From: Deltaproteobacteria bacterium
GTDB taxonomy: Bacteria > Desulfobacterota > GWC2-55-46
NCBI GenBank assembly: GCA_016213015.1
Contig: JACRCE010000011.1
Location: 10,586 to 74,585, forward strand
DNA: 64,000 nucleotides
Reading direction: 5' to 3'
Made by a program: the position numbers and the translations under genes. Positions 12,071-49,627 of the stretch are shown in pieces (the first letter of the stretch is position 1; each line of letters begins with the position of its first letter). The notes under the pieces are model-generated. The model saw nothing but the letters and a program-made list of their open reading frames with translations, was not told the origin of the DNA and ran no database searches.

Positions 12071-12853
12071 GTGCAAAAAATGAAAAAACAACTTGAAACC
12101 ACGACAATCTTCCTGCTCGCATTCGTTGCGTTTGCATTAGCGGCGTTCATACCGGCTCAGGTTCAGGCACTCCCTACCTTGCAGCTTGACATAGCAAATG
12201 GAGTGTACGACCCTGTGAGCAAGACGATCGTTTCGTCCGCCGACAAATTTACGTTGTATGCATTCCTATTGCCTGGAAAAACTCAGGCGCCGGTAACCGG
12301 CGCATACTATATCTCCGCGGCGCTCGTTGCTACGAATGGCAAGACAATAGGGGCAGGCAACTTCGGCAGCTTCTCCTTCAACGGCGTTCAAAAGAACGTT
12401 ACCAACGATATGGTCTTTGGGACGCCGCCGCTTGAGGCCAATCTGGCATTTGACCCAGGCGATCTTTCCAAACACGGCATATACCCGACGTACTTCAACG
12501 AGTTTTCATTCAAGTTCAACTCCAACAACGAAACGGCTCAATACAACACGCAAGACAGGGCCAAGGCAGGTACGCCGATCAACATCGCGCCGAATCCTAA
12601 CAACGGCAACATGTATTACGCGGCGTTTTCGGTGGATACGACGCTTCTCGCGCCCGGCTATGCCATACATTTCGACCTGTACAACGAGAAGGTCAGACGC
12701 GGGGATACCGATGTAAATCTCTTTGCTCCCTTCTCGCACGACGCTCAGTCAAGGGCAAAGGTGCCGGAGCCTGCCACGGCGCTGTTGATTGGCGCCGGAT
12801 TTGCCGGTCTGTGGCTACATGGCAAAAAACAGAAGGGCACCTCTAAAAATTAG
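12071..12853 (+). CDS. PEP-CTERM sorting-domain secreted protein
   Basis: The ORF has an N-terminal signal peptide and a C-terminus VPEPATALLIGAGFAGLWLHGKKQKG (PEP motif, hydrophobic helix, basic tail). The last residues TSKN and the TAG stop are encoded by the terminal inverted repeat of repeat element B1. Confidence 0.8.
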   Translation: MQKMKKQLETTTIFLLAFVAFALAAFIPAQVQALPTLQLDIANGVYDPVSKTIVSSADKFTLYAFLLPGKTQAPVTGAYYISAALVATNGKTIGAGNFGSFSFNGVQKNVTNDMVFGTPPLEANLAFDPGDLSKHGIYPTYFNEFSFKFNSNNETAQYNTQDRAKAGTPINIAPNPNNGNMYYAAFSVDTTLLAPGYAIHFDLYNEKVRRGDTDVNLFAPFSHDAQSRAKVPEPATALLIGAGFAGLWLHGKKQKGTSKN

Positions 12854-12970
12854 AGATTTTTTCCGCAATCAAGGAATGGCGAAAATAAAAAGTGGAGCAT
12901 ATATGTGAATATGTGAGCATTTTTATTTTAGCCATGACACAGAGCCCGGAAAAAAGATCAATTTTTAGAG
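12842..12970. mobile_element. MITE-like element, family B, copy B1 (intact, ~129 bp)
   Basis: It has imperfect ~24-bp TIRs TCTAAAAATTAGAGATTTTTTCCG ... CCGGAAAAAAGATCAATTTTTAGAG. The interior is homologous to the other B copies. Confidence 0.6.
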
Positions 12971-13074
12971 GTGGCCATAAAATAAGCGCTTGATTTTTAA
13001 GAAATCTGCCGCTATAATGCCCAAAAAGCATGTAGGTTGAAAATCCCGTACTAATAAGGTGAACGGATTAACGA

Positions 13075-18416: not shown

Positions 18417-18470
18417 GGGTTGAAAGACGGTTCAGAGATAACCATAAACCGTCTTCCAACCGTCTTTAAC
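18417..18470. repeat. hairpin repeat, family E (GTTGAAAGACGGTT ... AACCGTCTT..AAC)
   Basis: This inverted repeat lies between purD and purE and is followed by the AGGAGG RBS of purE. A second copy is at 18967-19012. Confidence 0.6.
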
Positions 18471-18480
18471 AGGAGGCCAT

Positions 18481-18981
18481 ATGTCTTCAAAACCGGTCGT
18501 AGGCATTCTCATGGGGAGCGATTCAGACCTGGCCGTAATGCGGGAGGCGGAGAGCGCGCTCAAGACGCTTGGCGTGCCATGCGAGATGACCATATCGTCG
18601 GCGCACAGGACGCCTGAGAGGACCGGCGAGTATGCGAAAACGGCCGTAAAGCGCGGCATAAAGGTCATAATCGCCGGGGCCGGAAGCGCGGCTCATCTTG
18701 CAGGGTTCGTTGCCGCGCATACCCCCTTGCCCGTAATCGGCGTGCCCATCGATTCAGGTCCGCTCAAAGGGCTTGACGCCCTTCTTGCAACCGTTCAGAT
18801 GCCTGGCGGAGTGCCAGTCGCATCGATGGCGCTTGGCAAGGCAGGGGCAAGGAACGCGGGCATCTTCGCGGCCCAGATACTTGCCGTATCGGACAAGGCG
18901 CTGGCAAAAAGGCTTGCCTCATATAAAAAGACGCTCGCAAGACAGGTTGAGGAAAAGGCAAGGAAGTTGAAAGACGGTTGA
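18481..18981 (+). CDS. purE: N5-carboxyaminoimidazole ribonucleotide mutase
   Basis: The 166-aa ORF has the signature GILMGSDSDL...IAGAGSAAHL. Confidence 0.9.
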   Translation: MSSKPVVGILMGSDSDLAVMREAESALKTLGVPCEMTISSAHRTPERTGEYAKTAVKRGIKVIIAGAGSAAHLAGFVAAHTPLPVIGVPIDSGPLKGLDALLATVQMPGGVPVASMALGKAGARNAGIFAAQILAVSDKALAKRLASYKKTLARQVEEKARKLKDG

Positions 18982-19012
18982 GAAATAACCGTGAACCGTC
19001 TTTAACCATGAA
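18967..19012. repeat. hairpin repeat, family E copy 2
   Basis: The sequence is GTTGAAAGACGGTTgagaaataaccgtgAACCGTCTTTAAC. It overlaps the 3' end of purE. Confidence 0.6.
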
Positions 19013-21913: not shown

Positions 21914-21953
21914 TGCGGTTATCCGTTAACGGTTAACGATGAAGGCATAAAAG

Positions 21954-25629: not shown

Positions 25630-25707
25630 GGCAATTATGTGGGTCTTTCCAAACAAGGCGTCTTATAAAAATATCTTGTCCGCGTCGAGTTGTCCAGCCC
25701 TAAGTAA

Positions 25708-25787
25708 GACGGTTATCTGTGGACGGTTATCGGTTTAAGGATAATTATTCTTTCACCTGCACCGATAATTGATAACCGATAACCGTC
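25708..25787. repeat. palindromic intergenic repeat, family D, copy D1 (GGTTATCGG / CCGATAACC arms)
   Basis: The sequence is gacGGTTATCtgtggacGGTTATCGGTTTAAGGATAATTATTCTTTCACCtgcaCCGATAAttGATAACCGATAACCgtc. Confidence 0.65.
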
Positions 25788-25904
25788 TTTGCTGATTTTA
25801 CAGACCGGCCTTTGTGTGGTAGGATTGAGCATTCGATCGGCATAACTCAAACTGTAAGCACACCGGACAAACCTGACGGCTTGGATAAAGGATAACAAAT
25901 TATT

Positions 25905-27608
25905 ATGGCTAATATACTTTTTGAACCCGGTTCCCCATCTTTCATGGATCTCATTGGAAACGGCAAGATACACGTCGTTCCCAGATACCAGAGGGATTAT
26001 TCGTGGAATTATGAAGAATGGGATGATCTATGGAATGACATTGAAGGCATTAAAACCGAAAAGATACATTATATGGGTTACGTGGTTTTGCAAAAAACAG
26101 ATGACCCGCTGAAATTTTTGGTTATAGACGGCCAACAAAGAATAACCACGTTAAGCATTCTGGCGCTTGGCGTTATCAAGGTATTGGAAGACTGGGTCGA
26201 GCAAGGCGTGGACGCGGCCAACAACAAAAGAAGGATTGCAATTCTTTCGGATAAATTTATCGGATTTACTCCAGCCGCGTCTCTCATGCCTGTAAGCAAG
26301 TTACACCTTAACCGCAACAATGACGGCTTTTATAAAAGTTATTTGATACGGCGGCGCAAACCAACGGCGATTGGAAAGTTGAAGCCGTCGGAAAAAAAGA
26401 TGTGGAGGGCATTCGAGTTCTTTTGCGATAAATTGAAAAAAAGATTCGATGACGATAAGGACGGGGCAACGCTTTCGGACTTTCTGGAAACGACCATTTC
26501 AATGAATCTTGTCTTTACCTCTATTACGGTAGGAAATGATCTGAATGCCTATAAAGTATTTGAGACTCTGAATGCAAGGGGCGTCAAACTTTCAACAGGA
26601 GACCTGATTAAAAACTATCTGTTTGCCGAGGTGGCAAAAACAAGCGAGCATGATCTGGATGAAGCGGAAAGACAATGGCAAAGGATAAACGACATCCTGC
26701 AACAGATCGAACTGCCTGTATTTTTAAGGCACTATTGGAATTCAGCTCATACATTGGAACGAAAAAATACCCTTTACAAAGCCCTGAATAGCGAAGTAAG
26801 AGGCGCCGCCGCCGTATTTAATCTACTTGGGGACATGGATAAGCTGGCTCTTGTTTATACGGCACTTGACAAACCATCCGATACCTTATGGAGCAAGGAA
26901 CAAGCCGTCCTTATAGAAGAACTGTCTTTAGTCAGTAGAACACAGCCTTTTCCTTTATTGCTGGCCGCTTACAAGCATATAAAGCCGTTAGATGAGGCGG
27001 AATTTACCAAGATAATAAGGGATTTAGTTGTCGTGTCTTTTCGTTATAATACCGTCAGCGGATTGAATCCCAATACACAGGAAGAAGCATATAACAAAAC
27101 GGCTATTGGTATCAGTAAGGGAACGTATAAAACCGCGCGCGACGTGTTTAACGGTTACACAAAGGAATTATATGTGGCTGATGAGAAATTTGAAAACGAC
27201 TTTACCTACATGACAATGAACACCACGCGCAATAAAACACTGGCAAGGTATCTTTTATGCAAAATGGAAAGACAACTCTCCGCCATACCGGTTGATTGGA
27301 ACGACAGTAAAGTTACCATTGAACATATACTTCCTGAAAATCCCAATTCCGAATGGGAAAAATGGTTCGACGCTGAACAACAGAATGAAAGCATCTACCG
27401 TATAGGCAACCTTACCTTGCTGGAAACAGGCAAAAACAAAGATTGCGGAAATAAGCTTTTTGCCGAAAAAAAAGACATCTATGCGACAAGTCAATACCTG
27501 CTTACCAAAAACAAAACATGCTTTAACGAATGGAAGCCTGAAGTCTTATTAAGAAGACAGCAAGGGATGGCCTCTCTTGCTAAAACCGTTTGGAAGGTTC
27601 AGTATTAA
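25905..27608 (+). CDS. DUF262/DUF1524 protein (GmrSD-like type IV restriction / ParB-like NTPase + His-Me-finger nuclease)
   Basis: The N-terminal motifs are VPRYQRDYSW and IDGQQRITT. The C-terminal motif is TIEHILPEN...RIGNLTLLETGKN. GC content is markedly lower (~40-45 %) than the ~60 % of flanking genes. Confidence 0.75.
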   Translation: MANILFEPGSPSFMDLIGNGKIHVVPRYQRDYSWNYEEWDDLWNDIEGIKTEKIHYMGYVVLQKTDDPLKFLVIDGQQRITTLSILALGVIKVLEDWVEQGVDAANNKRRIAILSDKFIGFTPAASLMPVSKLHLNRNNDGFYKSYLIRRRKPTAIGKLKPSEKKMWRAFEFFCDKLKKRFDDDKDGATLSDFLETTISMNLVFTSITVGNDLNAYKVFETLNARGVKLSTGDLIKNYLFAEVAKTSEHDLDEAERQWQRINDILQQIELPVFLRHYWNSAHTLERKNTLYKALNSEVRGAAAVFNLLGDMDKLALVYTALDKPSDTLWSKEQAVLIEELSLVSRTQPFPLLLAAYKHIKPLDEAEFTKIIRDLVVVSFRYNTVSGLNPNTQEEAYNKTAIGISKGTYKTARDVFNGYTKELYVADEKFENDFTYMTMNTTRNKTLARYLLCKMERQLSAIPVDWNDSKVTIEHILPENPNSEWEKWFDAEQQNESIYRIGNLTLLETGKNKDCGNKLFAEKKDIYATSQYLLTKNKTCFNEWKPEVLLRRQQGMASLAKTVWKVQY

Positions 27609-27635: not shown

Positions 27636-28397
27636 ATGTCCATCAAACCCAAGGCGGCCTTTTTCTCGTTCACCTGTTGCGAGGGGTGCCAGCTCATGAT
27701 ACTGAGCTGCGAGAAGGAACTGCCGTCCATACTCGAACATATCGAGATAGTCAACTTCCGCGAGGCCATGACCGAACGGAGCGAGGACTATCAGGCGGCC
27801 TTCATCGAAGGCTCCGTCAGCAAACGTGAAGAAATCAAAAAACTCAAAAAGATACGTGAAAAGGCAAAGGTGGTGGTTGCCCTTGGCGCGTGCTCCGCAA
27901 TTGGCGGACTTAATTGCCTTAAAAACCGCTTCCAGATGGACTATCTAAGGAAAGAGGTCTACGGGCAGGACGGCCTGAAGTTCAAGGCCTTTGAAACCAT
28001 ACCGGCAAGGCCCATTGACTCGATAATCCATGTCGACTACTATATACACGGCTGTCCCATACCCAAAAAAGAGTTCCTGTCCGTCCTGACCTCCCTGCTC
28101 ATGGGAAGCGTCCCACGCATCGTGAACCACCCGGTTTGCGTAGACTGCAAGATAGCGGGAAATATCTGCGTGTTCGAGAAGGGCTTAACCTGCCTCGGCC
28201 CGATAACAAGGGCCGGATGCGACGCGGTCTGTATTACTTACGGATGCGTATGCTGGGGATGCAGGGGGCCGGTCGACGACCCGAACACCGCGGCGCATAA
28301 GGAAACGCTTCTAAGACACGGCCTTTCAGCCGATGACGTATCGCTCGCTTTGAGTCTTTACGGCGCTCACAAAACAAAGACTACCTCTAAAAATTAG
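27636..28397 (+). CDS. [NiFe]-hydrogenase small subunit, group-3 (MvhG/VhuG-like)
   Basis: The ORF has the N-terminal FSFTCCEGCQ motif and distal [4Fe-4S] Cys clusters (CVDCK...C, CxxGCxxxC...CWGCRGP). The TAG stop at 28395-28397 lies within the terminus of repeat B2. Confidence 0.85.
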   Translation: MSIKPKAAFFSFTCCEGCQLMILSCEKELPSILEHIEIVNFREAMTERSEDYQAAFIEGSVSKREEIKKLKKIREKAKVVVALGACSAIGGLNCLKNRFQMDYLRKEVYGQDGLKFKAFETIPARPIDSIIHVDYYIHGCPIPKKEFLSVLTSLLMGSVPRIVNHPVCVDCKIAGNICVFEKGLTCLGPITRAGCDAVCITYGCVCWGCRGPVDDPNTAAHKETLLRHGLSADDVSLALSLYGAHKTKTTSKN

Positions 28398-28654
28398 GGA
28401 AGCTCTGATTAATTCGCCAATCCGTCATTCTCGCTCCGCGAAGCAATCTCGTCTTCAAGGAAATCAATAAGTTACGAGATTGCCGCGCCGCAAAAGCGCG
28501 GCTCGCAATGACAAATAAGAATTAATCAGAGCTTCCTTAGATAGTTTTCCCGAGGTCAAGGAAGGGCGAAAATAAAAAGCGTAGCATATATGCAATATGT
28601 GAGCATTTTTATTTTAGCCATGACGCAGAGATCGGGAAAAATAGCAATTTTTAA
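28385..28654. mobile_element. family-B MITE-like element copy B2 carrying a nested family-A MITE
   Basis: The B TIRs are cctctaaaaattag ... gggaaaaatagcaatttttaa. The interior is homologous to B1 (agcatatatgcaatatgtgagcatttttattttagccatgac). Confidence 0.6.
28398..28536 (+). mobile_element. MITE family A, copy A1 (139 bp)
   Basis: It has perfect 17-bp TIRs GGAAGCTCTGATTAATT / AATTAATCAGAGCTTCC and is flanked by a 4-bp direct duplication TTAG (28394-28397 and 28537-28540). Confidence 0.8.
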
Positions 28655-29944
28655 ATGAAAAAAGACCTCCACATAAAGATAGATGAAATAACCCGCGTCG
28701 AGGGACACGGCAACGTGGTCATTGACGTAAAGAAGGGCGTGGTTAAGGATGTCGCTCTTGAGATAATCGAGTCCCCCCGGTTTTTCGAGATGATGTTAAG
28801 GGGCAGAAGATACGACGAGGCACACCACATCATGTCGCGCATCTGCGGCATCTGCGCGGTGAGCCATACGTCGGCCTCTCTCAAGGCCATAGAGTCGGCA
28901 ATGGGCATTCGCATCTCAAGGCAGGCGACGCTATTGAGGAAACTCGCCTTTGCGGGCGAGATGCTTCAGAGCCATATACTGCATCTGTACTTTCTCGTAT
29001 TCCCTGACTTTTTAGGCGAAGGCTCGATAGTGCCGATATTGAAGACCCATCCTGAGATAGCAAGGAAGGGTCTTGAACTCAAGAGGCTCGCCAACGAGAT
29101 ATGCGCCGTCGTGGCCGGCAGGCACATCCACCCGATATCGCTCGCCCCCGGAGGCGTGGCGCATCTGCCGACCGCTCAGGAACTTAAAAAACTCCGCTCC
29201 AGCCTCGATGCCTCCTTTGACGACCTTGAGTTCACTTATGACCTGCTCTCAAAGGTTCACGTGCCGGAGTTCGAGAAAAGGCGCGACTTCGTGTCGCTGA
29301 AGTCGCGGGGAGAGTACGGCGCTTACGCCGGAGAGCCGGCATCAAGCGAGGGCTACGCCATTACGGCCAAGACCTACACGAAAAAGATTCGGGAGTACAC
29401 GGTTGCCCACTCCGCGGCAAAGCAGGCAAGAAGTCCGAAGGGCGCCTTCATGGTAGGCGCCCTCGCAAGGGTCAACAACAACTGGAAAAGGCTCTCACAG
29501 CGCTCGCGCGCTATAGCCGAGAAGGCCGGATTGAGGCCGCCATGCTTCAATCCGTTTCACAACAACACGGCCCAACTCGTGGAATGTTTTCAGATGACCG
29601 GGGACGCGATACGGATGATAGACGCCCTGCTTGAGGCCGGATTGAAGCCGGAGCCGTTGAAAAAACCCAAGGGATGGGGCATCGGCATAGGCATCGTCGA
29701 GGCCCCGCGAGGGACGCTCTACCACGAATACCGGATAAACAGGGACGGCTTTGTCGAGGCCGCGGAGTGCGTCATACCCACGGCGCAGAATCTAAGGGCT
29801 ATCGAAGAAGACCTCCGCGCCTTCGTGCCGCTCATAATGGATAAGCCGAAAGAGGAGATACGGCGTATAGTGGAGACGCTCGTAAGGGCCTATGACCCGT
29901 GCATATCGTGTTCGACGCATATAATGGACGTAAGATTCGTTTAG
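28655..29944 (+). CDS. [NiFe]-hydrogenase large subunit, group-3
   Basis: The ORF has the N-terminal RICGICAVSH motif and the C-terminal DPCISCSTH motif, followed by a short IMDVRFV tail. The first Cys is Cys and not Sec, so this is NiFe, not NiFeSe. The ATG directly abuts the end of MITE B2 and no SD is visible. Confidence 0.9.
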   Translation: MKKDLHIKIDEITRVEGHGNVVIDVKKGVVKDVALEIIESPRFFEMMLRGRRYDEAHHIMSRICGICAVSHTSASLKAIESAMGIRISRQATLLRKLAFAGEMLQSHILHLYFLVFPDFLGEGSIVPILKTHPEIARKGLELKRLANEICAVVAGRHIHPISLAPGGVAHLPTAQELKKLRSSLDASFDDLEFTYDLLSKVHVPEFEKRRDFVSLKSRGEYGAYAGEPASSEGYAITAKTYTKKIREYTVAHSAAKQARSPKGAFMVGALARVNNNWKRLSQRSRAIAEKAGLRPPCFNPFHNNTAQLVECFQMTGDAIRMIDALLEAGLKPEPLKKPKGWGIGIGIVEAPRGTLYHEYRINRDGFVEAAECVIPTAQNLRAIEEDLRAFVPLIMDKPKEEIRRIVETLVRAYDPCISCSTHIMDVRFV

Positions 29945-29953
29945 AGGGAAAGA

Positions 29954-31075
29954 TTGCGTATAAACATCGCTAAAGCGCCGCTCCTTGAGCGGATACTCCA
30001 GAGGCAGATAGTCTCTTCCAAATCCGAAGACGTTGACCTCAAGGCCGTGCTCCGGGAGATACTCCTTCGGGCAAACAGGTTCGTGCCCTCGGAGTCGGGT
30101 TCCATACTGCTTGACGCGCCCGCCGGGGATGAAACCGACAAGGCGCTTGCCAAGCTCTACTTTGTGGCATGCTTCGGCAAGGGTTCCGTCGCTCTCGTCA
30201 ATACCACGCTGCCTTCAAGCACGGGTATAGCGGGCAGGACATACTCGACAGGAAAGCCGTACATAAGCAAAAAGGTGTCCAGAGACAAATGCTTCTACCC
30301 GGGCCTCGACAAAAAAACAAAGTTCTGCACGAAGTCCATCGTATGCGCGCCGATAAAATTGAAAAAACATACAATCGGCGTAATAGAGTTGATCAACAGG
30401 CTCTCCGACATAAACTACACGTCAAAGGATTTGTCGCTCCTTAAGATATTCGCCGAATACACCTCAAAGCTCATCCAGAACGCGCTTGACGCAAAGACCT
30501 TCGAAATACTCTCGAAAAAGGACAACCTCACGTCGCTTTACAACGACCGGTACTTCTACAATCAGCTTACAAAGGAAACGGCGCGCTCAATCAAGCGCGG
30601 GACGGACTTGAGTCTCATCTTCATGGATCTGGACAGGTTCAAGGAGGTCAACGACACCTACGGACACCTTGCCGGAAGCCGGGTGCTGACCGAGGTCGGC
30701 TGTATAATAAAAGATACGCTTCCCACCGCTGATTCAAGAGGCATTCGCTACGGCGGGGACGAATACGTCGTGATACTGCCGGGGTTGAATCTCGACGAGG
30801 CGGCCGACTACGCGGAAAAACTGAGAATGGCCATTCAGGAGTTCACGTTCCTGACGAAAAGGCTCCACGCAAACGCCAAACCCATAATGCTCAAGGGTCA
30901 TATAACAAGCTCGATCGGGGCGGCCTCTCTCATGGAGAACGTGGAGGAGGCCGGCAGCGTCAACGAGATACGCGACAACCTGATAAAACAGGCGGACACG
31001 GCCATGTACAAGTCCAAACAGAACGGCAGAAACCTTATAACAGTTGCCCCGGCCGGAGGCAAAAAGAAAAGCTGA
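29954..31075 (+). CDS. GAF-domain diguanylate cyclase (GGDEF)
   Basis: The ORF has a TTG start with gagggaaag upstream. An N-terminal GAF domain is followed by RYGGDEYVV (intact GGDEF-type A-site). The upstream inhibitory-site motif RxxD is not clearly seen. Confidence 0.8.
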   Translation: MRINIAKAPLLERILQRQIVSSKSEDVDLKAVLREILLRANRFVPSESGSILLDAPAGDETDKALAKLYFVACFGKGSVALVNTTLPSSTGIAGRTYSTGKPYISKKVSRDKCFYPGLDKKTKFCTKSIVCAPIKLKKHTIGVIELINRLSDINYTSKDLSLLKIFAEYTSKLIQNALDAKTFEILSKKDNLTSLYNDRYFYNQLTKETARSIKRGTDLSLIFMDLDRFKEVNDTYGHLAGSRVLTEVGCIIKDTLPTADSRGIRYGGDEYVVILPGLNLDEAADYAEKLRMAIQEFTFLTKRLHANAKPIMLKGHITSSIGAASLMENVEEAGSVNEIRDNLIKQADTAMYKSKQNGRNLITVAPAGGKKKS

Positions 31076-31077
31076 AA

Positions 31078-31167
31078 ACGGTTATCAGTTATCGGTAGTC
31101 GGTTATCGGTTTGAAAACAATGATTCTTTCACCTTCGCCGATAACCAATTACCGATTACCGATAACC
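31078..31167. repeat. family D palindromic repeat, copy D2
   Basis: The sequence is aacGGTTATCagttatcggtagtcGGTTATCGGTTTgaaaacaatgATTCTTTCACCttcgCCGATAAccaattaCCGATtaCCGATAACC. It has the same orientation as D1. Confidence 0.65.
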
Positions 31168-31544
31168 TTCTTCACCAGCCTCAACTCCTCAGGCAACCTC
31201 ATCGGCTTGCCGTCATTTCCGACCGAGGCAAGCGTTACGCTGCCCTCAACCAGAGTCTTCTCCTGCTTGAACAAGACGTGTTCAAACGTAATGGTCGCGC
31301 CCGTTGCGCCTGAGAGACGCGTATCGAGGATGAGCAGGTCGTCATATCTCGCCGGTGCGATATATCGCGCCTCCACGCTCCGCACCACGAATATCACGCC
31401 TGAGGTGTGCAGTTCTCCAAGCGAAACACCCCGCTCTCTCAACAACTCCGTCCTGCCGCGCTCGAAGTATCGCAGATAGTTGGCGTAGTAGACCACGCCT
31501 CCGCAGTCGGTGTCCTCGTAATATATCCTTATCGGTATACGCAT
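31149..31544 (-). CDS. acyl-CoA thioesterase, YbgC/4HBT family
   Basis: The 131-aa ORF begins MRIPIRIYYEDTDCGGVVYYANYLRYFERGR, a hotdog-fold signature. Confidence 0.8.
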   Translation of the reverse strand: MRIPIRIYYEDTDCGGVVYYANYLRYFERGRTELLRERGVSLGELHTSGVIFVVRSVEARYIAPARYDDLLILDTRLSGATGATITFEHVLFKQEKTLVEGSVTLASVGNDGKPMRLPEELRLVKKVIGNR

Positions 31545-32880: not shown

Positions 32881-33062
32881 CGCGGTTATCGGTGGACGGT
32901 TATCCGTTATCGGATTAAGGATAAGGAAAACCACCTCACCCTACCCTCTCCCCCTTGGGGAGAGTAGAAAAAAACGAAACTCTTTCTTAGGGAAGCAATT
33001 AATCAGAGCTTCCTTAATTATCTTTTTCCTTCACCGATAACCGTCAACTGATAACCGATAAC
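32881..33062. repeat. family D palindromic repeat, copy D3, expanded by an internal insertion containing a family-A MITE remnant
   Basis: The D arms are gcGGTTATCGGtggacGGTTATCcGTTATCGGaTTAAGGATAA ... TTATCTTTTTCCTTCACCGATAACCgtcaactGATAACCGATAAC. The interior carries the hairpin ctctcccccttggggagag and, at 32991-33013, GGAAGC+AATTAATCAGAGCTTCC, flanked by TTAG/TTAA. Confidence 0.6.
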
Positions 33063-33083
33063 AGCCTTTACATATATGCGGCC

Positions 33084-33956
33084 TTGCTGTACCATATTTT
33101 TATGGTACTAACAGCGGTTGTCTTACTTGTCGTCCTGCTCGTCATGCCGGATGCCGCCGATGCGTGGGGGCCGGCGACGCACCTTGAACTCGCGCTCACG
33201 GCGCTCAACAACGCCTCCGTCGTTTCCGCACCGGTCAGGTCGCTCATCGAACATTTCCCTTACGACTTCCTTTACGGCAACATAAGCGCAGACATCTATG
33301 TCGGTAAAAATCTCGTTGAGGAGTTGAAGCACTGCCATAACTGGAAGGCCGGTTTCGCCCTCCTGAAAAACGCAAAGTCCGGCTCTCAGAGGGCGTTTGC
33401 CTACGGGTATCTCTCCCATCTCGCGGCGGACACCGTGGCTCATAATCACTTCATCCCCGAAAGGATGCTTCGCTCGTTCTCCGCAAGGACATTGAGGCAC
33501 GTCTACTGGGAGATGCGGGCCGACGCCCTGGCCGACAAACGTGTCTGGCGCCTGCCGAAAAGGATCGCGGCTCAGGCCGCTGAAGACAACGACGCCCTGT
33601 TGAACGCAACTATTGAGGGCGCTCCGTTATCGTTCAGAACGAACAAGACCATATTCTCAAGCATCATGAGCATCAACAGGATGAAGCACTGGCACAGGAT
33701 GCTCGATCTGCTCTCCGTTACGTCAAGATGGTCTCTCGACAAACAGGAAAGGGAGTTGCACTTCAACGACTCCCTTGACGCCATAATGGGACTTCTCAAA
33801 TCCCCGCTCAAGGCGCCTTGCCTCAAAAAAGACCCCATCGGCAGACTCAACCTTGCCCTTGCCTCCACGGCGAGAAAACGCCTGAGGGCAATGAAAAAGG
33901 CCGGCCTCGCATGGGAAGAGGCGCTTTCAGAGGAACTCGCCAAAGTAGCGCCCTGA
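33084..33956 (+). CDS. secreted zinc-dependent phospholipase C / S1-P1 nuclease-like protein
   Basis: The ORF has a signal peptide, then AWGPATHLELA...HLAADTVAHNHF His-rich zinc-ligand motifs. Family assignment is tentative. Confidence 0.5.
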   Translation: MLYHIFMVLTAVVLLVVLLVMPDAADAWGPATHLELALTALNNASVVSAPVRSLIEHFPYDFLYGNISADIYVGKNLVEELKHCHNWKAGFALLKNAKSGSQRAFAYGYLSHLAADTVAHNHFIPERMLRSFSARTLRHVYWEMRADALADKRVWRLPKRIAAQAAEDNDALLNATIEGAPLSFRTNKTIFSSIMSINRMKHWHRMLDLLSVTSRWSLDKQERELHFNDSLDAIMGLLKSPLKAPCLKKDPIGRLNLALASTARKRLRAMKKAGLAWEEALSEELAKVAP

Positions 33957-34320
33957 TAAAAATTAGAAATTTTTTTCGAGGTCAAGGAAGGGCGAAAATA
34001 AACTTGTCCTCGTGGTATCTATCGAGCAAAGCGGAGCATATAATTAAGGAAGCTCTGATTAATTCGCCGACCCGTCATTCTCGCTCCGCGAAGCAATCTC
34101 GTCTTCAAGGAAATCAACAACTTAGAGATTGCCGCGCCGCGAAAGCGCGGCTCGCAATGACAAAATAAGAATTAATCAGAGGTTCCTTAATATATGAACA
34201 TTGGGCCAACCGCAAAAGCGCGGTTAGGCCCTGCAAGGAAGCTCACGCTCTCTTTGAAGCCCGTCTTATTGCGCCCTGACGCCCGTAACGTAACAGTCGG
34301 GGAAAATAGCAATTTTTACC
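33957..34320. mobile_element. family-B element copy B3 (long variant) carrying a nested family-A MITE at a different internal site
   Basis: The left TIR is aaaaattagaaatttttttcgaggtcaagg and the right TIR is cggggaaaatagcaatttttacc. Its terminus overlaps the TAA stop of coaBC (34316-34318). Confidence 0.55.
34048..34186 (+). mobile_element. MITE family A, copy A2 (139 bp)
   Basis: The TIRs are GGAAGCTCTGATTAATT / AATTAATCAGAGGTTCC (one mismatch). It is flanked by the 4-bp duplication TTAA (34044-34047 and 34187-34190). Confidence 0.8.
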
Positions 34321-38802: not shown

Positions 38803-38822
38803 CCGTATGCCCCATTCCGAAG

Positions 38823-38911
38823 CCGATAATCGGTTGACGGTTATCAGTGAAGGTGAACGAATAATTATCCTTAAACCGATAACTGATAACCGTCTTATAA
38901 CCGATAACCGT
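38823..38911. repeat. family D palindromic repeat, copy D4 (inverted orientation)
   Basis: The sequence is ccGATAAtCGGttgacGGTTATCagtGAAGGTGAAcGAATAATTATCCTTAAACCGATAActGATAACCgtcttataaCCGATAACCG. Confidence 0.65.
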
Positions 38912-38917
38912 TCTTAC

Positions 38918-39715
38918 TTACAACGTCTGCATTACCCATGTTACCCTGCCGACAATCGCAACTTCTCCGGCGCTCGCCGTAAGCTCCGGGAACTGCGGGT
39001 TATCGGGCCGCATAATCAACGCATTATTGCCCTTGAATATGCGCCGCACTGTGACGCTTCCGCTTGCCGTCCTTACGATGTATATCGCGCCGTCCCTTAG
39101 CGTTAAATCCCTATACTGTATCCCGACGATTGCGCCGTCTCTTATGGTGGCCTCCATGCTGTCGTCCGACACGCTAAAGGCAACCGGGCCCGCCTTTGCC
39201 AGAAGCTCTGAAACGATCAGCGTATCAACCGGTACGCGCAGGAGCGCGTTAGCAGGGTCTTTCAACAACTCAAGCCTGTACACGTTGATCGAGATCATCT
39301 CTTGCGGGGAGCGCTCGTCTTGGACGCCGCCCCCGGCCTCAAGGCCGCGCCAATCTATCACCGGCTCCTCTGCCCTCGCGTATTGATTGAGCGCGGCATC
39401 AACCACGGCGTACATGCCTTCATCGTTGACGTGTCCATACTGCCCTTGTGCCCGCGCAGGGACCTGCGAAGGCATAATCCCCTTGCCTGACATAAGCCAC
39501 TCCATGTTAACGCCTAACTTCAGGCATATTAACTCGGTTAACGACGCGCCGGGAGACCTCTTGCCCTGCTCAATCATGGTTATATAAGCCGGAGATACGT
39601 TCAATAAGGCCGCAAATTCAGCGCGGTTAAGCCTGCCGCGTACGATGCCGATCCTGCTTGCGATGCTTGACTTCCGACGGCCTTCCGAACCGTTGTTAAT
39701 TCTTTTTCTTGACAT
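38918..39715 (-). CDS. XRE-type HTH + S24 (LexA/CI-like) peptidase repressor
   Basis: The N-terminal HTH is AEFAALLNVSPAYITMIEQGKRSP, followed by a long linker. The C-terminal S24 fold (...SMEATIRDGAIVGIQ...) has a conserved Ser-Lys dyad region. Confidence 0.7.
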   Translation of the reverse strand: MSRKRINNGSEGRRKSSIASRIGIVRGRLNRAEFAALLNVSPAYITMIEQGKRSPGASLTELICLKLGVNMEWLMSGKGIMPSQVPARAQGQYGHVNDEGMYAVVDAALNQYARAEEPVIDWRGLEAGGGVQDERSPQEMISINVYRLELLKDPANALLRVPVDTLIVSELLAKAGPVAFSVSDDSMEATIRDGAIVGIQYRDLTLRDGAIYIVRTASGSVTVRRIFKGNNALIMRPDNPQFPELTASAGEVAIVGRVTWVMQTL

Positions 39716-44324: not shown

Positions 44325-44462
44325 GGAAGGTCTGATTAATTCTTATTTTGTCATTGCGAGCCGCGCTTTCGCGGCGCGGCAATCTCTAAGTTGTTGATTT
44401 CCTTGAAGACGAGATTCTACGCTGCGCGAGAATGACGGGTCGGCGAATTAATCAGAGCTTCC
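44325..44462 (-). mobile_element. MITE family A, copy A4 (138 bp, inverted orientation)
   Basis: The TIRs are GGAAGGTCTGATTAATT / AATTAATCAGAGCTTCC. It is flanked by the 4-bp duplication ATAG (44321-44324 and 44463-44466) and lies about 30 bp upstream of the glyQ start. Confidence 0.8.
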
Positions 44463-47696: not shown

Positions 47697-47767
47697 CCTG
47701 AACAAATTTTGAGTTTTTCAACAAATTGGAGGTCCATGCGATACTCATTCCAGCCTTTTATTGGTTG

Positions 47768-48238
47768 CCTTTAAAAATTAGGGAGGCTCTGATTAATTCT
47801 TATTTTGTCATTGCGAGCCCAGCACCACTTTGGATTATGAAAGCGTGTTCCTTGGCAAATTCCTTCGTGCAACAAAGTGGTGCTGGGTTGATTTCCTTGA
47901 AGACGAGATTCTACGCTGCGCGAGAATGACGGATCGGCGAATAAATCAGAGCTTCCTTAGATAGTTTTTCCGAGTTCAAGGAAGGGCGAAAATAAACTTG
48001 TCCTCGCGTGTATTTAGCGGGGAAAGCGCAGCATATACGTTAATATGTGAGCATTGGGCTACCTCCCCCATTCCCCCCCTTAGTAAGGGGGGGAATGGGG
48101 GAGGTAGCCTCGGCAAGGAATTGCTCATTTTGAAAGCGCGTCTTATCGCGCCTGCGGCGCGAGCCGACGGGCAACCGATGTATTTTCGCCCTGACACCCG
48201 TAACGCAATCGGTCGGGAAAAATAGCAATCTTTAGAGG
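47768..48238. mobile_element. composite repeat: family-B long variant (B4) with nested A3 and a 53-bp perfect palindrome
   Basis: The B TIRs are cctttaaaaattag ... cgggaaaaatagcaatctttagagg. The interior is homologous to B3. The palindrome is ggctacctcccccattccccccc-ttagtaa-gggggggaatgggggaggtagcc at ~48057-48109. Confidence 0.55.
47782..47956 (+). mobile_element. MITE family A, copy A3 (175 bp; internal hairpin module replaced)
   Basis: The TIRs are GGAGGCTCTGATTAATT / AAATCAGAGCTTCC. The TSD is TTAG (47778-47781 and 47957-47960). The internal hairpin is CCCAGCACCACTTT...AAAGTGGTGCTGGG instead of CCGCGC...GCGCGG. Confidence 0.75.
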
Positions 48239-48244
48239 CAGCCA

Positions 48245-49627
48245 CTACATCTCCACCATCTCCCCGTCCTCCGGCGTATGCACCTTGAAGCCGAACCTCT
48301 CCCTTGCAAGGGATGCAAGCGACTCTCTCGCCTCTTTTTCGCCGTGCACCATATAGACCTCAGGCGAATCGTTGAAGGCGGCAAGCCATTCAAGAAGTTC
48401 CTCTCTCCCTGCATGTGCTGAAAAGCCGTTTATCGTGTATATCGGCGCCTTGACGACCACCTGTTCGCCGAGCACTGACACGGACTTTGCGCCGTCAACG
48501 AGCCGTCTGCCAAGCGTGCCTTCGGCCTGATAGCCGACGAATATTATCCCGCATTCGGAGCGCCAGAGGTTATGCTTGAGGTGATGCCGTATCCTGCCCC
48601 CTTCGCACATGCCGCTTCCGGCTATGATGATGCAACCGGATTTGACCATGTTGAGCTTCATGGAGTCTTCCACGGAGCGCACGAAATGCATCCTCATGGA
48701 AAAGTCCTTCTGCTTGCCGGTAAAGAGCCTTCTTGCCTCGTCGTCAAAGCACTCCGGGTGCGCCGCGTATATCCTTGTAACCGCCTCGGCCAGCGGGCTG
48801 TCAAGATATACGTCTATCTTGTAAAGACGCCCCTCGCGCACGAGGTTGTTGATGATGTAAAGCAGGTCTTGCGTCCTGCCGACCGCGAAAGACGGGATGT
48901 AGACGTTGCCGCCGCGCTTGAAGGTGGTCTTGATGGCGGCCGTCAATTCGCCTATGCTCTCGTTTATCGGCTTATGAGACCTGTTGCCGTAGGTGGACTC
49001 CATGATAACGTAGTTCGCGCCCTCGGGCTTGAACGGGTCTTTTATTATTGGGTTGTCCTTTTTGCCGATGTCTCCTGAGAAGACTAATTTCTTTTCGACG
49101 CTCGAGTCCTGAAACCATATCTCCACCGAGGCCGAACCAAGGATATGCCCGGCATCCAGAAACCTGTACTTGACGCCGTTGCCGAGATGAAAGACCTTGT
49201 CATACGGTTTGGTATCGAAGAGCGGCAGGAGGTTTTCAACGTCTTCGGTGGTGTAGAGCGGTTCGGCCGGGGCCATGCCTGTCCTCATCCCCTTTTTCGT
49301 AAGCCACTCGGCGTCGCTTTGCTGGATACCGGCCGAGTCATAGAGCATCGGCTCAAGCAGGTCCCGCGTGGGAGAGGTCGTTATTACCCTGCCCTTGAAG
49401 CCTTCCTTCAGCGCCTTTGGCAGCATCCCTGAATGGTCTATGTGCGCGTGGGTTACGAAGATGTAGTCCAACTCAACGGGATTGAACGGGAAGGGGCGCT
49501 TGTTGGCATCGTCTGAGCCGTTGCCCTGACGCATGCCGCACTCCACCAGAATCCTGAGCCTGTTGACCTCTATATAATAACAGGACCCGGTTACGGTGCT
49601 TGCGCCTCCTACGAATCGAAGCTTCAA
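48245..49627 (-). CDS. beta-CASP / MBL-fold ribonuclease (RNase J / CPSF-like RNA-metabolising metallo-beta-lactamase)
   Basis: The ORF has the HAHIDHSG motif followed by beta-CASP and C-terminal RNA-specificity domains. It is 460 aa. Confidence 0.75.
   Translation of the reverse strand: MKLRFVGGASTVTGSCYYIEVNRLRILVECGMRQGNGSDDANKRPFPFNPVELDYIFVTHAHIDHSGMLPKALKEGFKGRVITTSPTRDLLEPMLYDSAGIQQSDAEWLTKKGMRTGMAPAEPLYTTEDVENLLPLFDTKPYDKVFHLGNGVKYRFLDAGHILGSASVEIWFQDSSVEKKLVFSGDIGKKDNPIIKDPFKPEGANYVIMESTYGNRSHKPINESIGELTAAIKTTFKRGGNVYIPSFAVGRTQDLLYIINNLVREGRLYKIDVYLDSPLAEAVTRIYAAHPECFDDEARRLFTGKQKDFSMRMHFVRSVEDSMKLNMVKSGCIIIAGSGMCEGGRIRHHLKHNLWRSECGIIFVGYQAEGTLGRRLVDGAKSVSVLGEQVVVKAPIYTINGFSAHAGREELLEWLAAFNDSPEVYMVHGEKEARESLASLARERFGFKVHTPEDGEMVEM

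Follow-up and report, generated by a model that had tools for sequence, protein, structure and literature searches.

Short C-terminal tails and stop codons donated to unrelated genes by a probable MITE of groundwater Deltaproteobacteria

Two unrelated proteins encoded in the window (the whole 64-kb stretch of DNA that was analysed), a PEP-CTERM protein and the small subunit of an [NiFe]-hydrogenase, end in the same residues, TSKN. Very probably, the DNA encoding these tails belongs to a MITE, a non-autonomous DNA transposon here called family B, which inserted in the same frame at the ends of both genes. This donation of tails involves no new biological principle. What the loci provide is a worked example, at the level of sequence, of a MITE rewriting C-termini and stops, complete with empty sites, a gene-end relic, footprints and an order of events. 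The hosts are uncultured groundwater Deltaproteobacteria, a lineage in which such elements were previously undescribed.

The shared tails and the genes that carry them

Both genes close with ACC TCT AAA AAT TAG, as the original prediction had stated, and the last 15 nt of the PEP-CTERM ORF (12839-12853, ACCTCTAAAAATTAG) are the same as those of the hydrogenase small-subunit ORF (28383-28397). TSKN and its stop had been assigned to the element terminus, which is correct, but the element-derived part is longer than these 15 nt and starts 4 nt earlier (GGGC in one gene, GACT in the other); five residues and a stop are supplied to each gene. When the family-B terminus is read inward, there is a TAA in one frame (..CTC TAA) and a TAG in another (..TCT AAA AAT TAG). 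Because stops are present in two frames, a gene that is hit near its end is closed after at most five element-encoded residues: host proteins terminate 0 or 7 nt into TAAAAATT, depending on the frame. The TAG frame gives a tail of the form x-[A/T/V]-S-K-N, in which the variable residue is encoded by an RCC or GTC codon at terminus positions 5-7. The PEP-CTERM and hydrogenase tails are identical because the two insertions share a frame. The features at the PEP-CTERM locus are:

12835-12976, unstranded: B1, an intact, compact family-B copy of 142 bp, with left terminus GGGCACCTCTAAAAATT and right terminus AATTTTTAGAGGTGGCC
12831-12834, unstranded: left copy (AGAA) of the B1 target duplication, the right copy (ATAA) being at 12977-12980
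12836-12853, plus strand: element-encoded end of the PEP-CTERM gene, GGC ACC TCT AAA AAT TAG (GTSKN and stop)
12979-12993, plus strand: relic of the old PEP-CTERM 3' end, AAAATAAGCGCTTGA (K I S A stop), pushed downstream by B1

The gene (ORF 12071-12853) encodes an NF038141 choice_anch_N (choice-of-anchor N) protein with a TIGR02595 PEP_CTERM domain, ending in ...GKKQKGTSKN; base 12835 of B1 also finishes the preceding AAG codon. Positions 12842-12865, to which the tail had originally been assigned, are only a part of the left terminus of B1. At the orthologous site of L004-L008, B1 is absent. The orthologue in L004, where the empty site reads CGTAAAATAAGC, is 86% identical and ends in ...GRKRKISA, and the last 15 nt of its gene are identical to the relic. 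B1 would have entered the gene four codons ahead of the stop, changing K-I-S-A-stop into (K)-G-T-S-K-N-stop. The relic also shares bases with the -35 of a promoter-like site at 12990-13018, which is conserved.

An effect of the tail on PEP-CTERM sorting, which had been raised as a possibility, is unlikely. TIGR02595 scores 21.1 bits on the window protein (cutoff 16; residues 231-255 of 260) versus 22.6 bits on the empty-site orthologue, GTSKN lies beyond both the end of the model and the basic cluster, and the 29 residues between the PEP motif and the C-terminus are within the family range of 22-37. Loss of the signal, suggested by a missing precomputed Pfam hit for P0121, was rejected when the direct scan scored above cutoff.

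At the hydrogenase locus, the corresponding features are:

28379-28653, unstranded: B2, a family-B copy between the small- and large-subunit genes, with a complete left terminus, GACTACCTCTAAAAATT
28380-28397, plus strand: element-encoded end of the small-subunit gene, ACT ACC TCT AAA AAT TAG (TTSKN and stop)
28398-28536, unstranded: a family-A MITE nested in B2 at the TTAG of the B terminus, with the duplication TTAG at 28394-28397 and 28537-28540

The small subunit (ORF 27636-28397) ends in ...AHKTKTTSKN, and the outer terminus of B2, GACTACCTC, matches GACTGCCTC of copies L016 and L033. B2 is truncated on the right, where it stops at AATTTTTA, 1 nt ahead of the large-subunit ATG (28655). 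In the outgroup L003, where the site is empty, the orthologue ends in ...AHPAKMK and the two subunit genes overlap as an ATGA stop/start. B2 would have entered the small-subunit gene about three codons ahead of its stop, turning (K)-M-K-stop into (K)-T-T-S-K-N-stop and breaking the ATGA overlap with the large-subunit gene. The insertion, with the identical truncated right junction, is also found in the H52/Hainich lineage (L001, L025, L058). The tree of the locus is ((window, L055), (L056, H52)), with L003 as the outgroup (four-point bootstrap 500/500). Filled loci in different sub-clades share this unusual right junction, which dates the insertion to their common ancestor and makes L055 and L056 products of later decay; neither L055 nor L009 qualifies as a simple empty site, each holding other inserts. 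A translationally coupled hydrogenase operon has thus long tolerated a structured insertion of 275-320 bp between its subunit genes.

Once inserted, copies decay by nesting of other MITEs, by deletion of a terminus or by outright loss, and it is because of this decay that the hydrogenase tail keeps changing among relatives. Close relatives end in KMK, TTSKN, TVSKN, TVSKIR, KTT or LPFLKER; a slip in the A5 run of the B terminus turns SKN into SKIR, and the TVSKN allele is present, with the element, in five separate assemblies. Across homologues, the tail after LYG is hypervariable.

The comparison of orthologues that had been proposed as a check thus comes out in favor of an element-derived tail, since the repeat-free orthologues end in KISA and KMK; the reading of TSKN as ancestral sequence was not borne out. 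Among 120 homologues of each protein, the SKN ending occurs only in the window's own cluster. Tails of the [A/T/V]SKN type are found on other proteins in relatives, namely ScpA (...DEDASKN), CobA-HemD (...KGASKN) and LeuD (...KGASKN), and GlgA ends in ...QGCL via the TAA frame. The gene/element junctions are not assembly artefacts, since the same junctions recur in independent Logan assemblies, with an identical small subunit (P0367) and an identical coaBC (P0241). The rewritten tails are predicted to be, most likely, neutral, and the insertions were probably harmless to both proteins. For annotation, [A/T/V]SKN and GxL tails on unrelated proteins of these MAGs are to be read as element scars and not as conserved motifs, and they may slightly mislead gene callers and Pfam-style models of C-termini such as PEP-CTERM.

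Anatomy, dispersal and mobility of family B

The intact element is 142 bp long and bounded by a 17-nt terminal inverted repeat (TIR), GGCWRCCTCTAAAAATT; B1, B4 and the majority of copies in relatives carry this repeat at each end. Of 61 paired copies, 32 have an inner length of 124 bp, the most common value. Family B has no coding capacity of its own, its sole ORFs being read-through frames, and B1 is predicted to fold as a single long hairpin, both as RNA (-58.3 kcal/mol, z -9.3) and as DNA (-35.3 kcal/mol, z -9.6). Insertion duplicates 4 bp of A/T-rich target of the T-T-N-A type (TTAA, TAAA, TTGA, TTCA); perfect duplications are TTAA, TAAA, TCAA, TTTC and TTCA, and also CTCA. When the duplications were compared in different registers, 40 of 48 positions were identical at register 0 versus 2-20 when shifted, and in a metagenome set 94 of 152 versus 24-54. 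This rules out an IS630-like duplication of TA, a model that also predicted an implausible ancestral read-through of coaBC. The idea that the outer 9 nt are a separate short palindrome, or a fixed target for a shorter element, was rejected as well: in 390 kb, the short outer palindrome CCTCTAGAGG never occurs alone and GAGGCAGCC is almost confined to family-B ends, and the 4-bp duplication lies outside the outer 9 nt.

Four copies (B1-B4) are present in the window. The sequence ACCTCTAAAAATT has three exact matches there (both ends of B1 and the left end of B2) and three more with two mismatches, including both ends of B4. The total of six compares with 1.43 expected from shuffles and was reached in none of 100 shuffles. 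Related Deltaproteobacteria MAGs in the genome collection hold about 27 copies, and metagenomes a further 55 left ends; dozens of copies are dispersed over at least eight related groundwater MAGs and, in addition, over metagenomes. Orthologous sites are polymorphic for the element, with empty sites in L004 (PEP-CTERM), L003 (hydrogenase) and L050 (coaBC/PLC). In its size, TIRs, target duplication and dispersed, polymorphic copies, family B has the properties of a MITE.

Two further features of the window belong here:

47763-48243, unstranded: B4, a long-form family-B copy with both outer termini, GGTTGCCTT and GAGGCAGCC
44325-44462, unstranded: a solo family-A MITE with TIR GGAAGSTCTGATTAATTC and duplication ATAG

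B4 contains a nested family-A copy (47782-47956) in the orientation opposite to that in B2, and a perfect 26+26 palindrome (48057-48109); its flanks, TATT and ACTA, form no clear duplication. A single nucleotide separates the right end of B4 (GAGGCAGCC, 48235-48243) from the stop (48245-48247, minus strand) of a beta-CASP metallo-beta-lactamase gene; this is a fourth case of adjacency to a gene end, which had previously been missed. The solo copy indicates that family A moves independently of B.

A transposase acting in trans presumably mobilizes family B. Across some 1.2 Mb of related loci, we found neither an autonomous partner with matching TIRs nor paired B termini 600-4000 bp apart that enclose a transposase, and for this reason both mobilization in trans and the IS family are presumptions. 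IS5-type insertion sequences and their MITE derivatives have TIRs starting with GG and a YTAR-like target duplication of 4 bp. Family A (GGAAGCTCTG..., with duplications TTAG, TTAA and ATAG) presumably fits this type best, and family B in part (TTAA, TAAA), but family B also targets TTCA, TTGA and TTTC, and no transposase partner was found. We take IS1380 and IS701, which are other families with 4-bp duplications, to be candidates for family B as well.

Insertions at gene ends and their possible roles

The third copy in the window lies between two convergent genes:

33957-34318, unstranded: B3, a decayed long-form family-B copy without outer termini and without target duplication
34316-34318, minus strand: coaBC stop TAA, the first three bases of the TAAAAATT end of B3

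B3, which holds a nested family-A copy at 34048-34186, is flush between the TGA (33954-33956) of a Zn-dependent phospholipase-C-like (PLC-like) gene and the final sense codon of coaBC. The original prediction had B3 beginning directly after this TGA and overlapping the coaBC stop at its other end, and so it does: B3 starts at 33957, and the TTA with which it finishes (34316-34318) is the coaBC TAA read on the other strand. The broader claim, that insertion rewrote C-termini and stops, holds for the PEP-CTERM and hydrogenase genes but not for these two. CoaBC is 394 aa long and ends in ...RVVRLKSR with or without the element, as do the orthologues P0243-P0245, and the PLC-like gene has retained its length and its TGA. 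The empty site in L050 reads CGT TAA TCA, in which the two convergent stops (TAA and TCA) abut. B3 sits exactly between them, and thus there was no rewriting at the level of protein; the ancestral ends were kept, with the coaBC TAA now being physically element DNA.

Why do the copies sit at gene ends? With a genome that is about 90% coding, most of this clustering could be expected, the copies that we see being the survivors of selection, located between genes or within the final few codons of a gene. If so, the quick stops in the B terminus would widen the zone in which an insertion is tolerated. The target sequence alone is insufficient as a cause of stop-codon adjacency: 116 of the 157 TTAA sites are under ORF cover, and because such tetramers are abundant inside ORFs, the flush stop-codon junctions are not accounted for by the target alone. 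Moreover, the outer 9 nt and the duplication are missing from B2 on the right and from B3 on both sides, so that a simple insertion model needs extra deletions.

It is conceivable, if rather improbable, that family B instead seeks out stop codons, with TTNA tetramers that include a TAA or TGA, or lie next to one, as a preferred safe harbor. A second mode of integration or repair, free of duplication and with the TAAAAATT end replacing the host stop, has also been considered. The former would make adjacency to gene ends an evolved property of the element and not survivorship alone, and the latter would keep essential C-termini (coaBC, HslU) exactly. Five of the eight family-B ends in the window overlap a stop codon or are at most 1 nt away, the coaBC/PLC empty site is a TTAA built from two abutting stops, and in relatives L019, L039 and L102 the stop is inside the target duplication. 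Truncated ends are flush on the native last codons of coaBC and of HslU in GWA2_54_12 (...DLSRYIL), as well as at an aminotransferase-like ORF in BACT1 and a 237-aa ORF, all with unchanged proteins, and by manual count genes are directly adjacent to about 6 of 10 truncated ends versus about 8 of 35 complete ones. However, in larger samples only about 9 of 55 left ends touch a long ORF, and the perfect duplications TTCA, TTTC and CTCA contain no stop codon on that strand. The coding density of about 90%, together with selection, by itself predicts enrichment at gene ends, and flush junctions can result from microhomology deletion between TAA repeats (TAA-GGCNNCCTC-TAA) after an ordinary insertion.

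Less probable still is that B copies have been co-opted by the host as gene-end modules, whether as a 3' hairpin that stabilizes or processes mRNA, as a terminator or as a spacer, including a structured or AU-rich spacer that would allow the large subunit to be translated without a Shine-Dalgarno sequence. The hairpin is highly stable, the core is strongly conserved in several MAG species, and the hydrogenase insertion has persisted through about 11% nucleotide divergence without damage to either gene; the AU-rich truncated right end of B2 is immediately 5' of the large-subunit ATG. There is also precedent in the Correia and QMITE hairpins, for which a role as RNase III substrates or regulators has been discussed (PMC2229807, PMC5896051, PMC10969869). 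On the other hand, family B has the target duplications, the presence/absence polymorphism and the nesting and decay that are typical of selfish elements, and the hydrogenase copy was lost in two of four ingroup lineages that kept the operon. B1 and B2 contain no terminator-like site, and no promoter-like site other than a weak 9/12 match on the minus strand of B1. The hairpin is not followed by a U-run, the sequence after B1 being GGCCATAAAATAAG, which sets it apart from intrinsic (SPRITE-like) terminators. An Rfam search at gathering thresholds returned two tRNAs only and no RNA family matching family B. A hairpin juxtaposing the small-subunit stop and the large-subunit start was discarded: the predicted B2 fold lacks the terminal AU pairing between them, and there is no covariation between the window and the H52 lineage.

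That TSKN is ancestral or convergent protein sequence, or a chimera of repeat assembly, can practically be dismissed, given the different endings of the empty-site orthologues, the old PEP-CTERM 3' end that persists 3' of B1 (which refutes it for that gene) and the identical junctions across independent assemblies. The element-free L056 reads ...AAG ACT ACC TGA, by which the hydrogenase Thr codons could be native, but ACT ACC is better read as a footprint, since GACTACCT of L056 equals the outer terminus of B and L056 falls inside the clade of the B-carrying ancestor.

Comparison with known systems

Coxiella, Neisseria, enterobacteria and Rickettsia already provide documented cases of MITEs that donate tails and stops, and the mechanism is familiar. 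The closest likeness is to QMITE1 and QMITE2 of Coxiella burnetii, TIR hairpin elements that extend 1-50 bp into functional genes at their 3' ends (PMC5896051). As in family B, these are small hairpins at gene 3' ends that donate tails: one copy gives EnhC a C-terminal extension of 33 residues with the stop directly after, and an indel adjacent to a QMITE switches the tail between strains, similar to the A5-run slip in family B (PMC5896051). QMITE2 is also a hot spot for insertion of IS1111 (PMC5896051), much as the TTAG of family B takes family A. However, the host is of another phylum and the sequences are unrelated, and QMITE2 has copy-specific direct repeats where family B has a regular 4-bp T-T-N-A duplication. 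In contrast to the EnhC extension, family-B tails are short and stereotyped ([A/T/V]SKN, GxL), because two of the three frames meet a stop within the first five codons of the terminus.

The Correia elements of Neisseria and the RU and ERIC elements of enterobacteria (Delihas) are abundant inverted repeats of 100-170 bp with A/T-rich targets (PMC2229807, PMC2759123), and resemble family B in their fusion to ORF ends and long RNA hairpins. Correia elements, however, have a TA duplication as well as IHF and promoter motifs (PMC2229807), whereas in family B the duplication is of 4 bp and we detected no motifs of this kind. RU and ERIC fusions mostly add long translatable stretches, where family B brings an immediate stop. 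REP/BIME sequences, which are RAYT-mobilized, extragenic imperfect palindromes of 20-40 nt without a duplication, differ from the 142-bp family B and its 4-bp duplication. Rickettsia palindromic elements (RPEs) are mobile palindromes that modify, but do not destroy, the products of unrelated housekeeping genes (PMC10969869). They do so in frame and are translated as internal peptides; family B forms no internal in-frame peptide, but terminates translation and replaces the extreme C-terminus only.

Origin of the shared C-terminal tail

The choice-of-anchor N protein with a PEP-CTERM domain (ORF 12071-12853) ends in ...GKKQKGTSKN*, and the group-3-type [NiFe]-hydrogenase small subunit (PF01058; ORF 27636-28397) ends in ...AHKTKTTSKN*. 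The final 15 nt are common to both genes (ACCTCTAAAAATTAG). Searched with a 13-nt version, the window gives three exact and three near matches, where 1.4 would be expected by chance; they mark the ends of a repeat present in four copies, family B:

B1, 12835-12976: intact form, 142 bp
B2, 28379-28653
B3, 33957-34318
B4, 47763-48243

The original prediction, that insertion of this repeat had rewritten C-termini and stop codons, was accurate in all its sequence statements when the ORF ends, the 15-nt string and the B3 junctions were re-read. Empty-site orthologues, from loci lacking the element, confirm that the element terminus encodes the TSKN tail in both genes. TSKN is absent from repeat-free orthologues, and among 120 homologues per protein SKN ends occur only in the window's own clusters. 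The interpretation holds for two of four genes, since the coaBC and phospholipase-C-like proteins were not altered.

The PEP-CTERM orthologue on five contigs (L004-L008; cluster P0122, 86% identical) ends in ...GRKRKISA* (GGC AGA AAA CGT AAA ATA AGC GCT TGA), and 78 nt further downstream lies the PilZ gene that is also its neighbor in the window. The last 15 nt of the orthologue, AAAATAAGCGCTTGA, are retained in the window at 12979-12993, just past the right copy of B1's target duplication. The empty-site 3' end and the relic downstream thus place the entry of B1 at (A/G)TAA, four codons short of the stop, with element DNA from the third base of AAG on (G GGC ACC TCT AAA AAT TAG). B1 is structurally intact, and the closest relative of the window lacks it; its insertion is therefore recent. 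A promoter-like TTGATT-17-TATAAT (10/12) at 12990-13018, after the old gene end and upstream of PilZ, is shared with the empty-site relative; the -35 box overlaps the former PEP-CTERM stop, and the site is intact with B1 just upstream.

The concern that the new tail might affect PEP-CTERM sorting finds no support. TIGR02595 scores 21.1 bits on the window protein (residues 231-255 of 260), still above the cutoff of 16, and 22.6 bits on the empty-site orthologue. The PEP motif, helix and GKKQK basic cluster all lie upstream of the insertion, and the PEP motif is 29 residues from the C-terminus (family range 22-37). Exosortase substrates have their C-terminal region cleaved off during sorting, and that of the window protein would presumably be removed as well. 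In a 78%-identical relative (L009, Logan SRR22388064), another insert of ~150 nt (1163-1320, TAAA duplication) sits at almost the same spot and supplies the tail ...KARRAGL*; upstream of its PilZ gene is one more insert, of ~120 nt (1386-1510), between copies of a 22-nt duplication.

Read inward, the B terminus meets TAA in one frame (GGC NNC CTC TAA) and TAG in another (..RCC TCT AAA AAT TAG); the third frame is the sole open one, for ~20 codons. The two tails are identical because B1 and B2 both happened to insert in the TAG frame. Terminus positions 5-7 set the first tail residue: A for GCC, T for ACC and V for GTC. Unrelated genes in relatives carry the same element scar: ScpA (...DEDASKN* in L048 and L139, with a TGAAAATT variant in L045 that stops ScpA three codons earlier), a CobA-HemD fusion (...YFKGASKN*, L091), LeuD (...KIKGASKN*, L081) and, in the TAA frame, glycogen synthase (...YQGCL*, L018). 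In several further genes (L019, L039, L102) the stop codon falls within the target duplication that borders the terminus.

Family B and its companion repeats

The left end of B1 is GGGCACCTCTAAAAATT and the right end its reverse complement, GGCCACCTCTAAAAATT; the entire length is an imperfect palindrome that folds into a single hairpin (RNA, -58.3 kcal/mol, z = -9.3; DNA, -35.3 kcal/mol, z = -9.6). Across copies the terminus is GGCWRCCTCTAAAAATTAG, and the modal inner length is 124 bp among the copies from the genome collection and the metagenome matches listed. A right-end motif scan of a species-representative genome collection yielded ~27 true copies, every one in uncultured "Deltaproteobacteria bacterium" MAGs (H52-bin143_1, H5_GWC, GWA2_54_12, several NC_groundwater bins and SJ296), and a left-end scan of metagenomes at least 55 more left ends. 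A 4-bp target duplication lies directly outside the nine outer bases: flank identity is 40/48 at the correct register versus 2-20/48 shifted in 12 complete elements, and 94/152 versus 24-54/152 in 38 further elements. Perfect duplications (TTAA, TAAA, TCAA, TTTC, TTCA and similar) indicate a T-T-N-A type target; B1 itself is flanked by AGAA and ATAA. The repeat matches no Rfam family, a scan of B1 and B2 found no terminator-like sites, and the single promoter-like match within them is weak (9/12, minus strand of B1). No larger element with family-B ends was found among the related loci searched. In all testable respects family B is a MITE, with a putative transposase partner.

A second MITE family, family A (TIR GGAAGCTCTGATTAATTC; duplications TTAG, TTAA, ATAG), is found in L043 and in the window:

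28398-28536: family A, in B2
34048-34186: family A
44325-44462: family A, solo
47782-47956: family A, in B4
32990-33016: family A, fragment

In B2 and B4 it occupies the identical TTAG of the B terminus but points in opposite directions, which marks the two as separate insertion events. The same TTAG is occupied in another genome (L043), which makes the B terminus a recurrent family-A target. In B2 the duplicated TTAG includes the TAG stop of the small subunit. B4 also contains a perfect 26+26-nt palindrome (48057-48109; GGCTACCTCCCCCATTCCCCCCCTTA / TAAGGGGGGGAATGGGGGAGGTAGCC), and B3 has a different hairpin at the equivalent position. A third intergenic family, with GGTTATCGGT / ACCGATAACC motifs often in inverted pairs, lies at:

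18419-18460
18966-19003
21916-21948
25706-25795
31067-31173
32883-33074
38820-38920

MITE ends at gene 3' ends and MITE-supplied tails are already known. The Coxiella elements QMITE1 and QMITE2 overlap the 3' ends of functional genes, EnhC has a MITE-supplied C-terminal extension, and Coxiella MITEs are hot spots for other elements (PMC5896051). Correia, RU and ERIC elements form ORF fusions (PMC2229807, PMC2759123), and Rickettsia RPEs insert in frame (PMC10969869). Family B is a newly described example that acts like these elements and is unrelated in sequence, but differs in its regular 4-bp duplication and short, stereotyped tails.

Insertion at gene ends

B3 starts, as predicted, directly past the TGA of the Zn-dependent phospholipase-C-like (PLC-like) gene (PF00882) and overlaps the coaBC stop, its last three bases being the reverse complement of the coaBC TAA. 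Orthologues of coaBC at 88-89% identity end in ...RVVRLKSR*, as in the window, and the length of the PLC-like protein is unchanged (...ELAKVAP* versus ...ELAKVAL*). B3 therefore rewrote no protein; the sole change is that the three bases of the coaBC TAA are now supplied by the element. In a relative (L050) the two genes meet stop to stop, the coaBC TAA running straight into the reverse complement of the PLC-like TGA (CGT TAA TCA); this leaves zero intergenic DNA and forms a TTAA target. A B-free junction from Hainich (L049 4176-4200, ENA ERZ1292631) reads CGCGG-T-GAGGCAGCC-CTGAA-TCA, in which the 9-nt GAGGCAGCC matches the B outer terminus and forms the coaBC TGA; it is probably the footprint of a lost B copy. 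The right end of B4, a case absent from the original prediction, lies 1 nt from the beta-CASP gene stop.

Why do these elements sit at stop codons? ORFs cover about 90% of the window, whose G+C content is 54%. Most TTAA-like tetramers fall in ORFs (116 of 157 TTAA) and only about 3% lie within 3 nt of a stop codon, which rules out target sequence alone as the cause. Selection would purge insertions elsewhere in genes, and the quick stops in the B terminus would stretch the region where insertion is tolerated to include a gene's last few codons.

Truncated B ends, without the outer 9 nt and the duplication, tend to sit flush with native last codons (coaBC, HslU with ...DLSRYIL*, an aminotransferase-like gene) or with the hydrogenase large-subunit start codon. 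Two element-free orthologous sites (L049 and L056) carry 8-9-nt pieces of the outer terminus. The conservative explanation for flush ends is post-insertion deletion via TAA...TAA microhomology; a second integration mode, replacing the host stop codon, seems improbable.

History of the hydrogenase junction

The outgroup small subunit (P0002, locus L003) ends in ...AHPAKMK* (CAC CCC GCA AAG ATG AAA TGA). In the window, what follows ACA AA is a complete B terminus (GACTACCTCTAAAAATTAG, to be compared with GACTGCCTC of L016 and L033); the element therefore encodes T-T-S-K-N*. Five states occur at this junction among close relatives:

L003: large-subunit ATG overlapping the small-subunit stop as ATGA
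Window: B with nested family A, ...TTSKN*
H52/Hainich lineage (L001, L025, L058): B with another nested repeat, ...TVSKN*
L056: without the element, AAG ACT ACC TGA AGACGAAATG, ...KKTT*
L055 (GCA_040960375.1), 2235-2330: copy of yet another repeat family, ...LPFLKER*

One H52/Hainich allele (L058 2250-2265, L059, P0365) has lost one A from the A5 run, changing ...TVSKN* to ...TVSKIR*; this homopolymer makes the tail slippage-prone. The L056 junction retains eight outer B bases, GACTACCT. The repeat family in L055 opens with a hairpin (CTTACCTTTCTTGAAAGAAAGGTAAG) and is multi-copy in related loci (L040, L035, L024, L034, L039, L050/L051), elsewhere nested in B copies.

A neighbor-joining tree of both subunit genes (1,977 nt, L003 outside) gives ((window, L055), (L056, H52)), with a four-point bootstrap of 500/500. 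Within the ingroup, no two loci are further apart than the two that carry B, yet their unusual right junction (...TTTA|AATGAAAAAAG) is the same. This is most simply read as a single insertion in a common ancestor, with later nesting and two separate decay events; recombination across lineages may also have produced the pattern.

The large-subunit start (28640-28657) is without a recognizable Shine-Dalgarno in all alleles. In the window, where the ATGA overlap is broken, only the AU-rich truncated B2 end, AGCAATTTTTAAATG, precedes it. Directly upstream of the hydrogenase operon is a 567-aa ORF (25905-27608), which we take from its N-terminal motifs to resemble a DUF262/GmrSD-type protein; SelB is in that place in L003 and L055. 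The ORF may be an inserted island, since the third-family repeat at 25706-25795 lies on its border.
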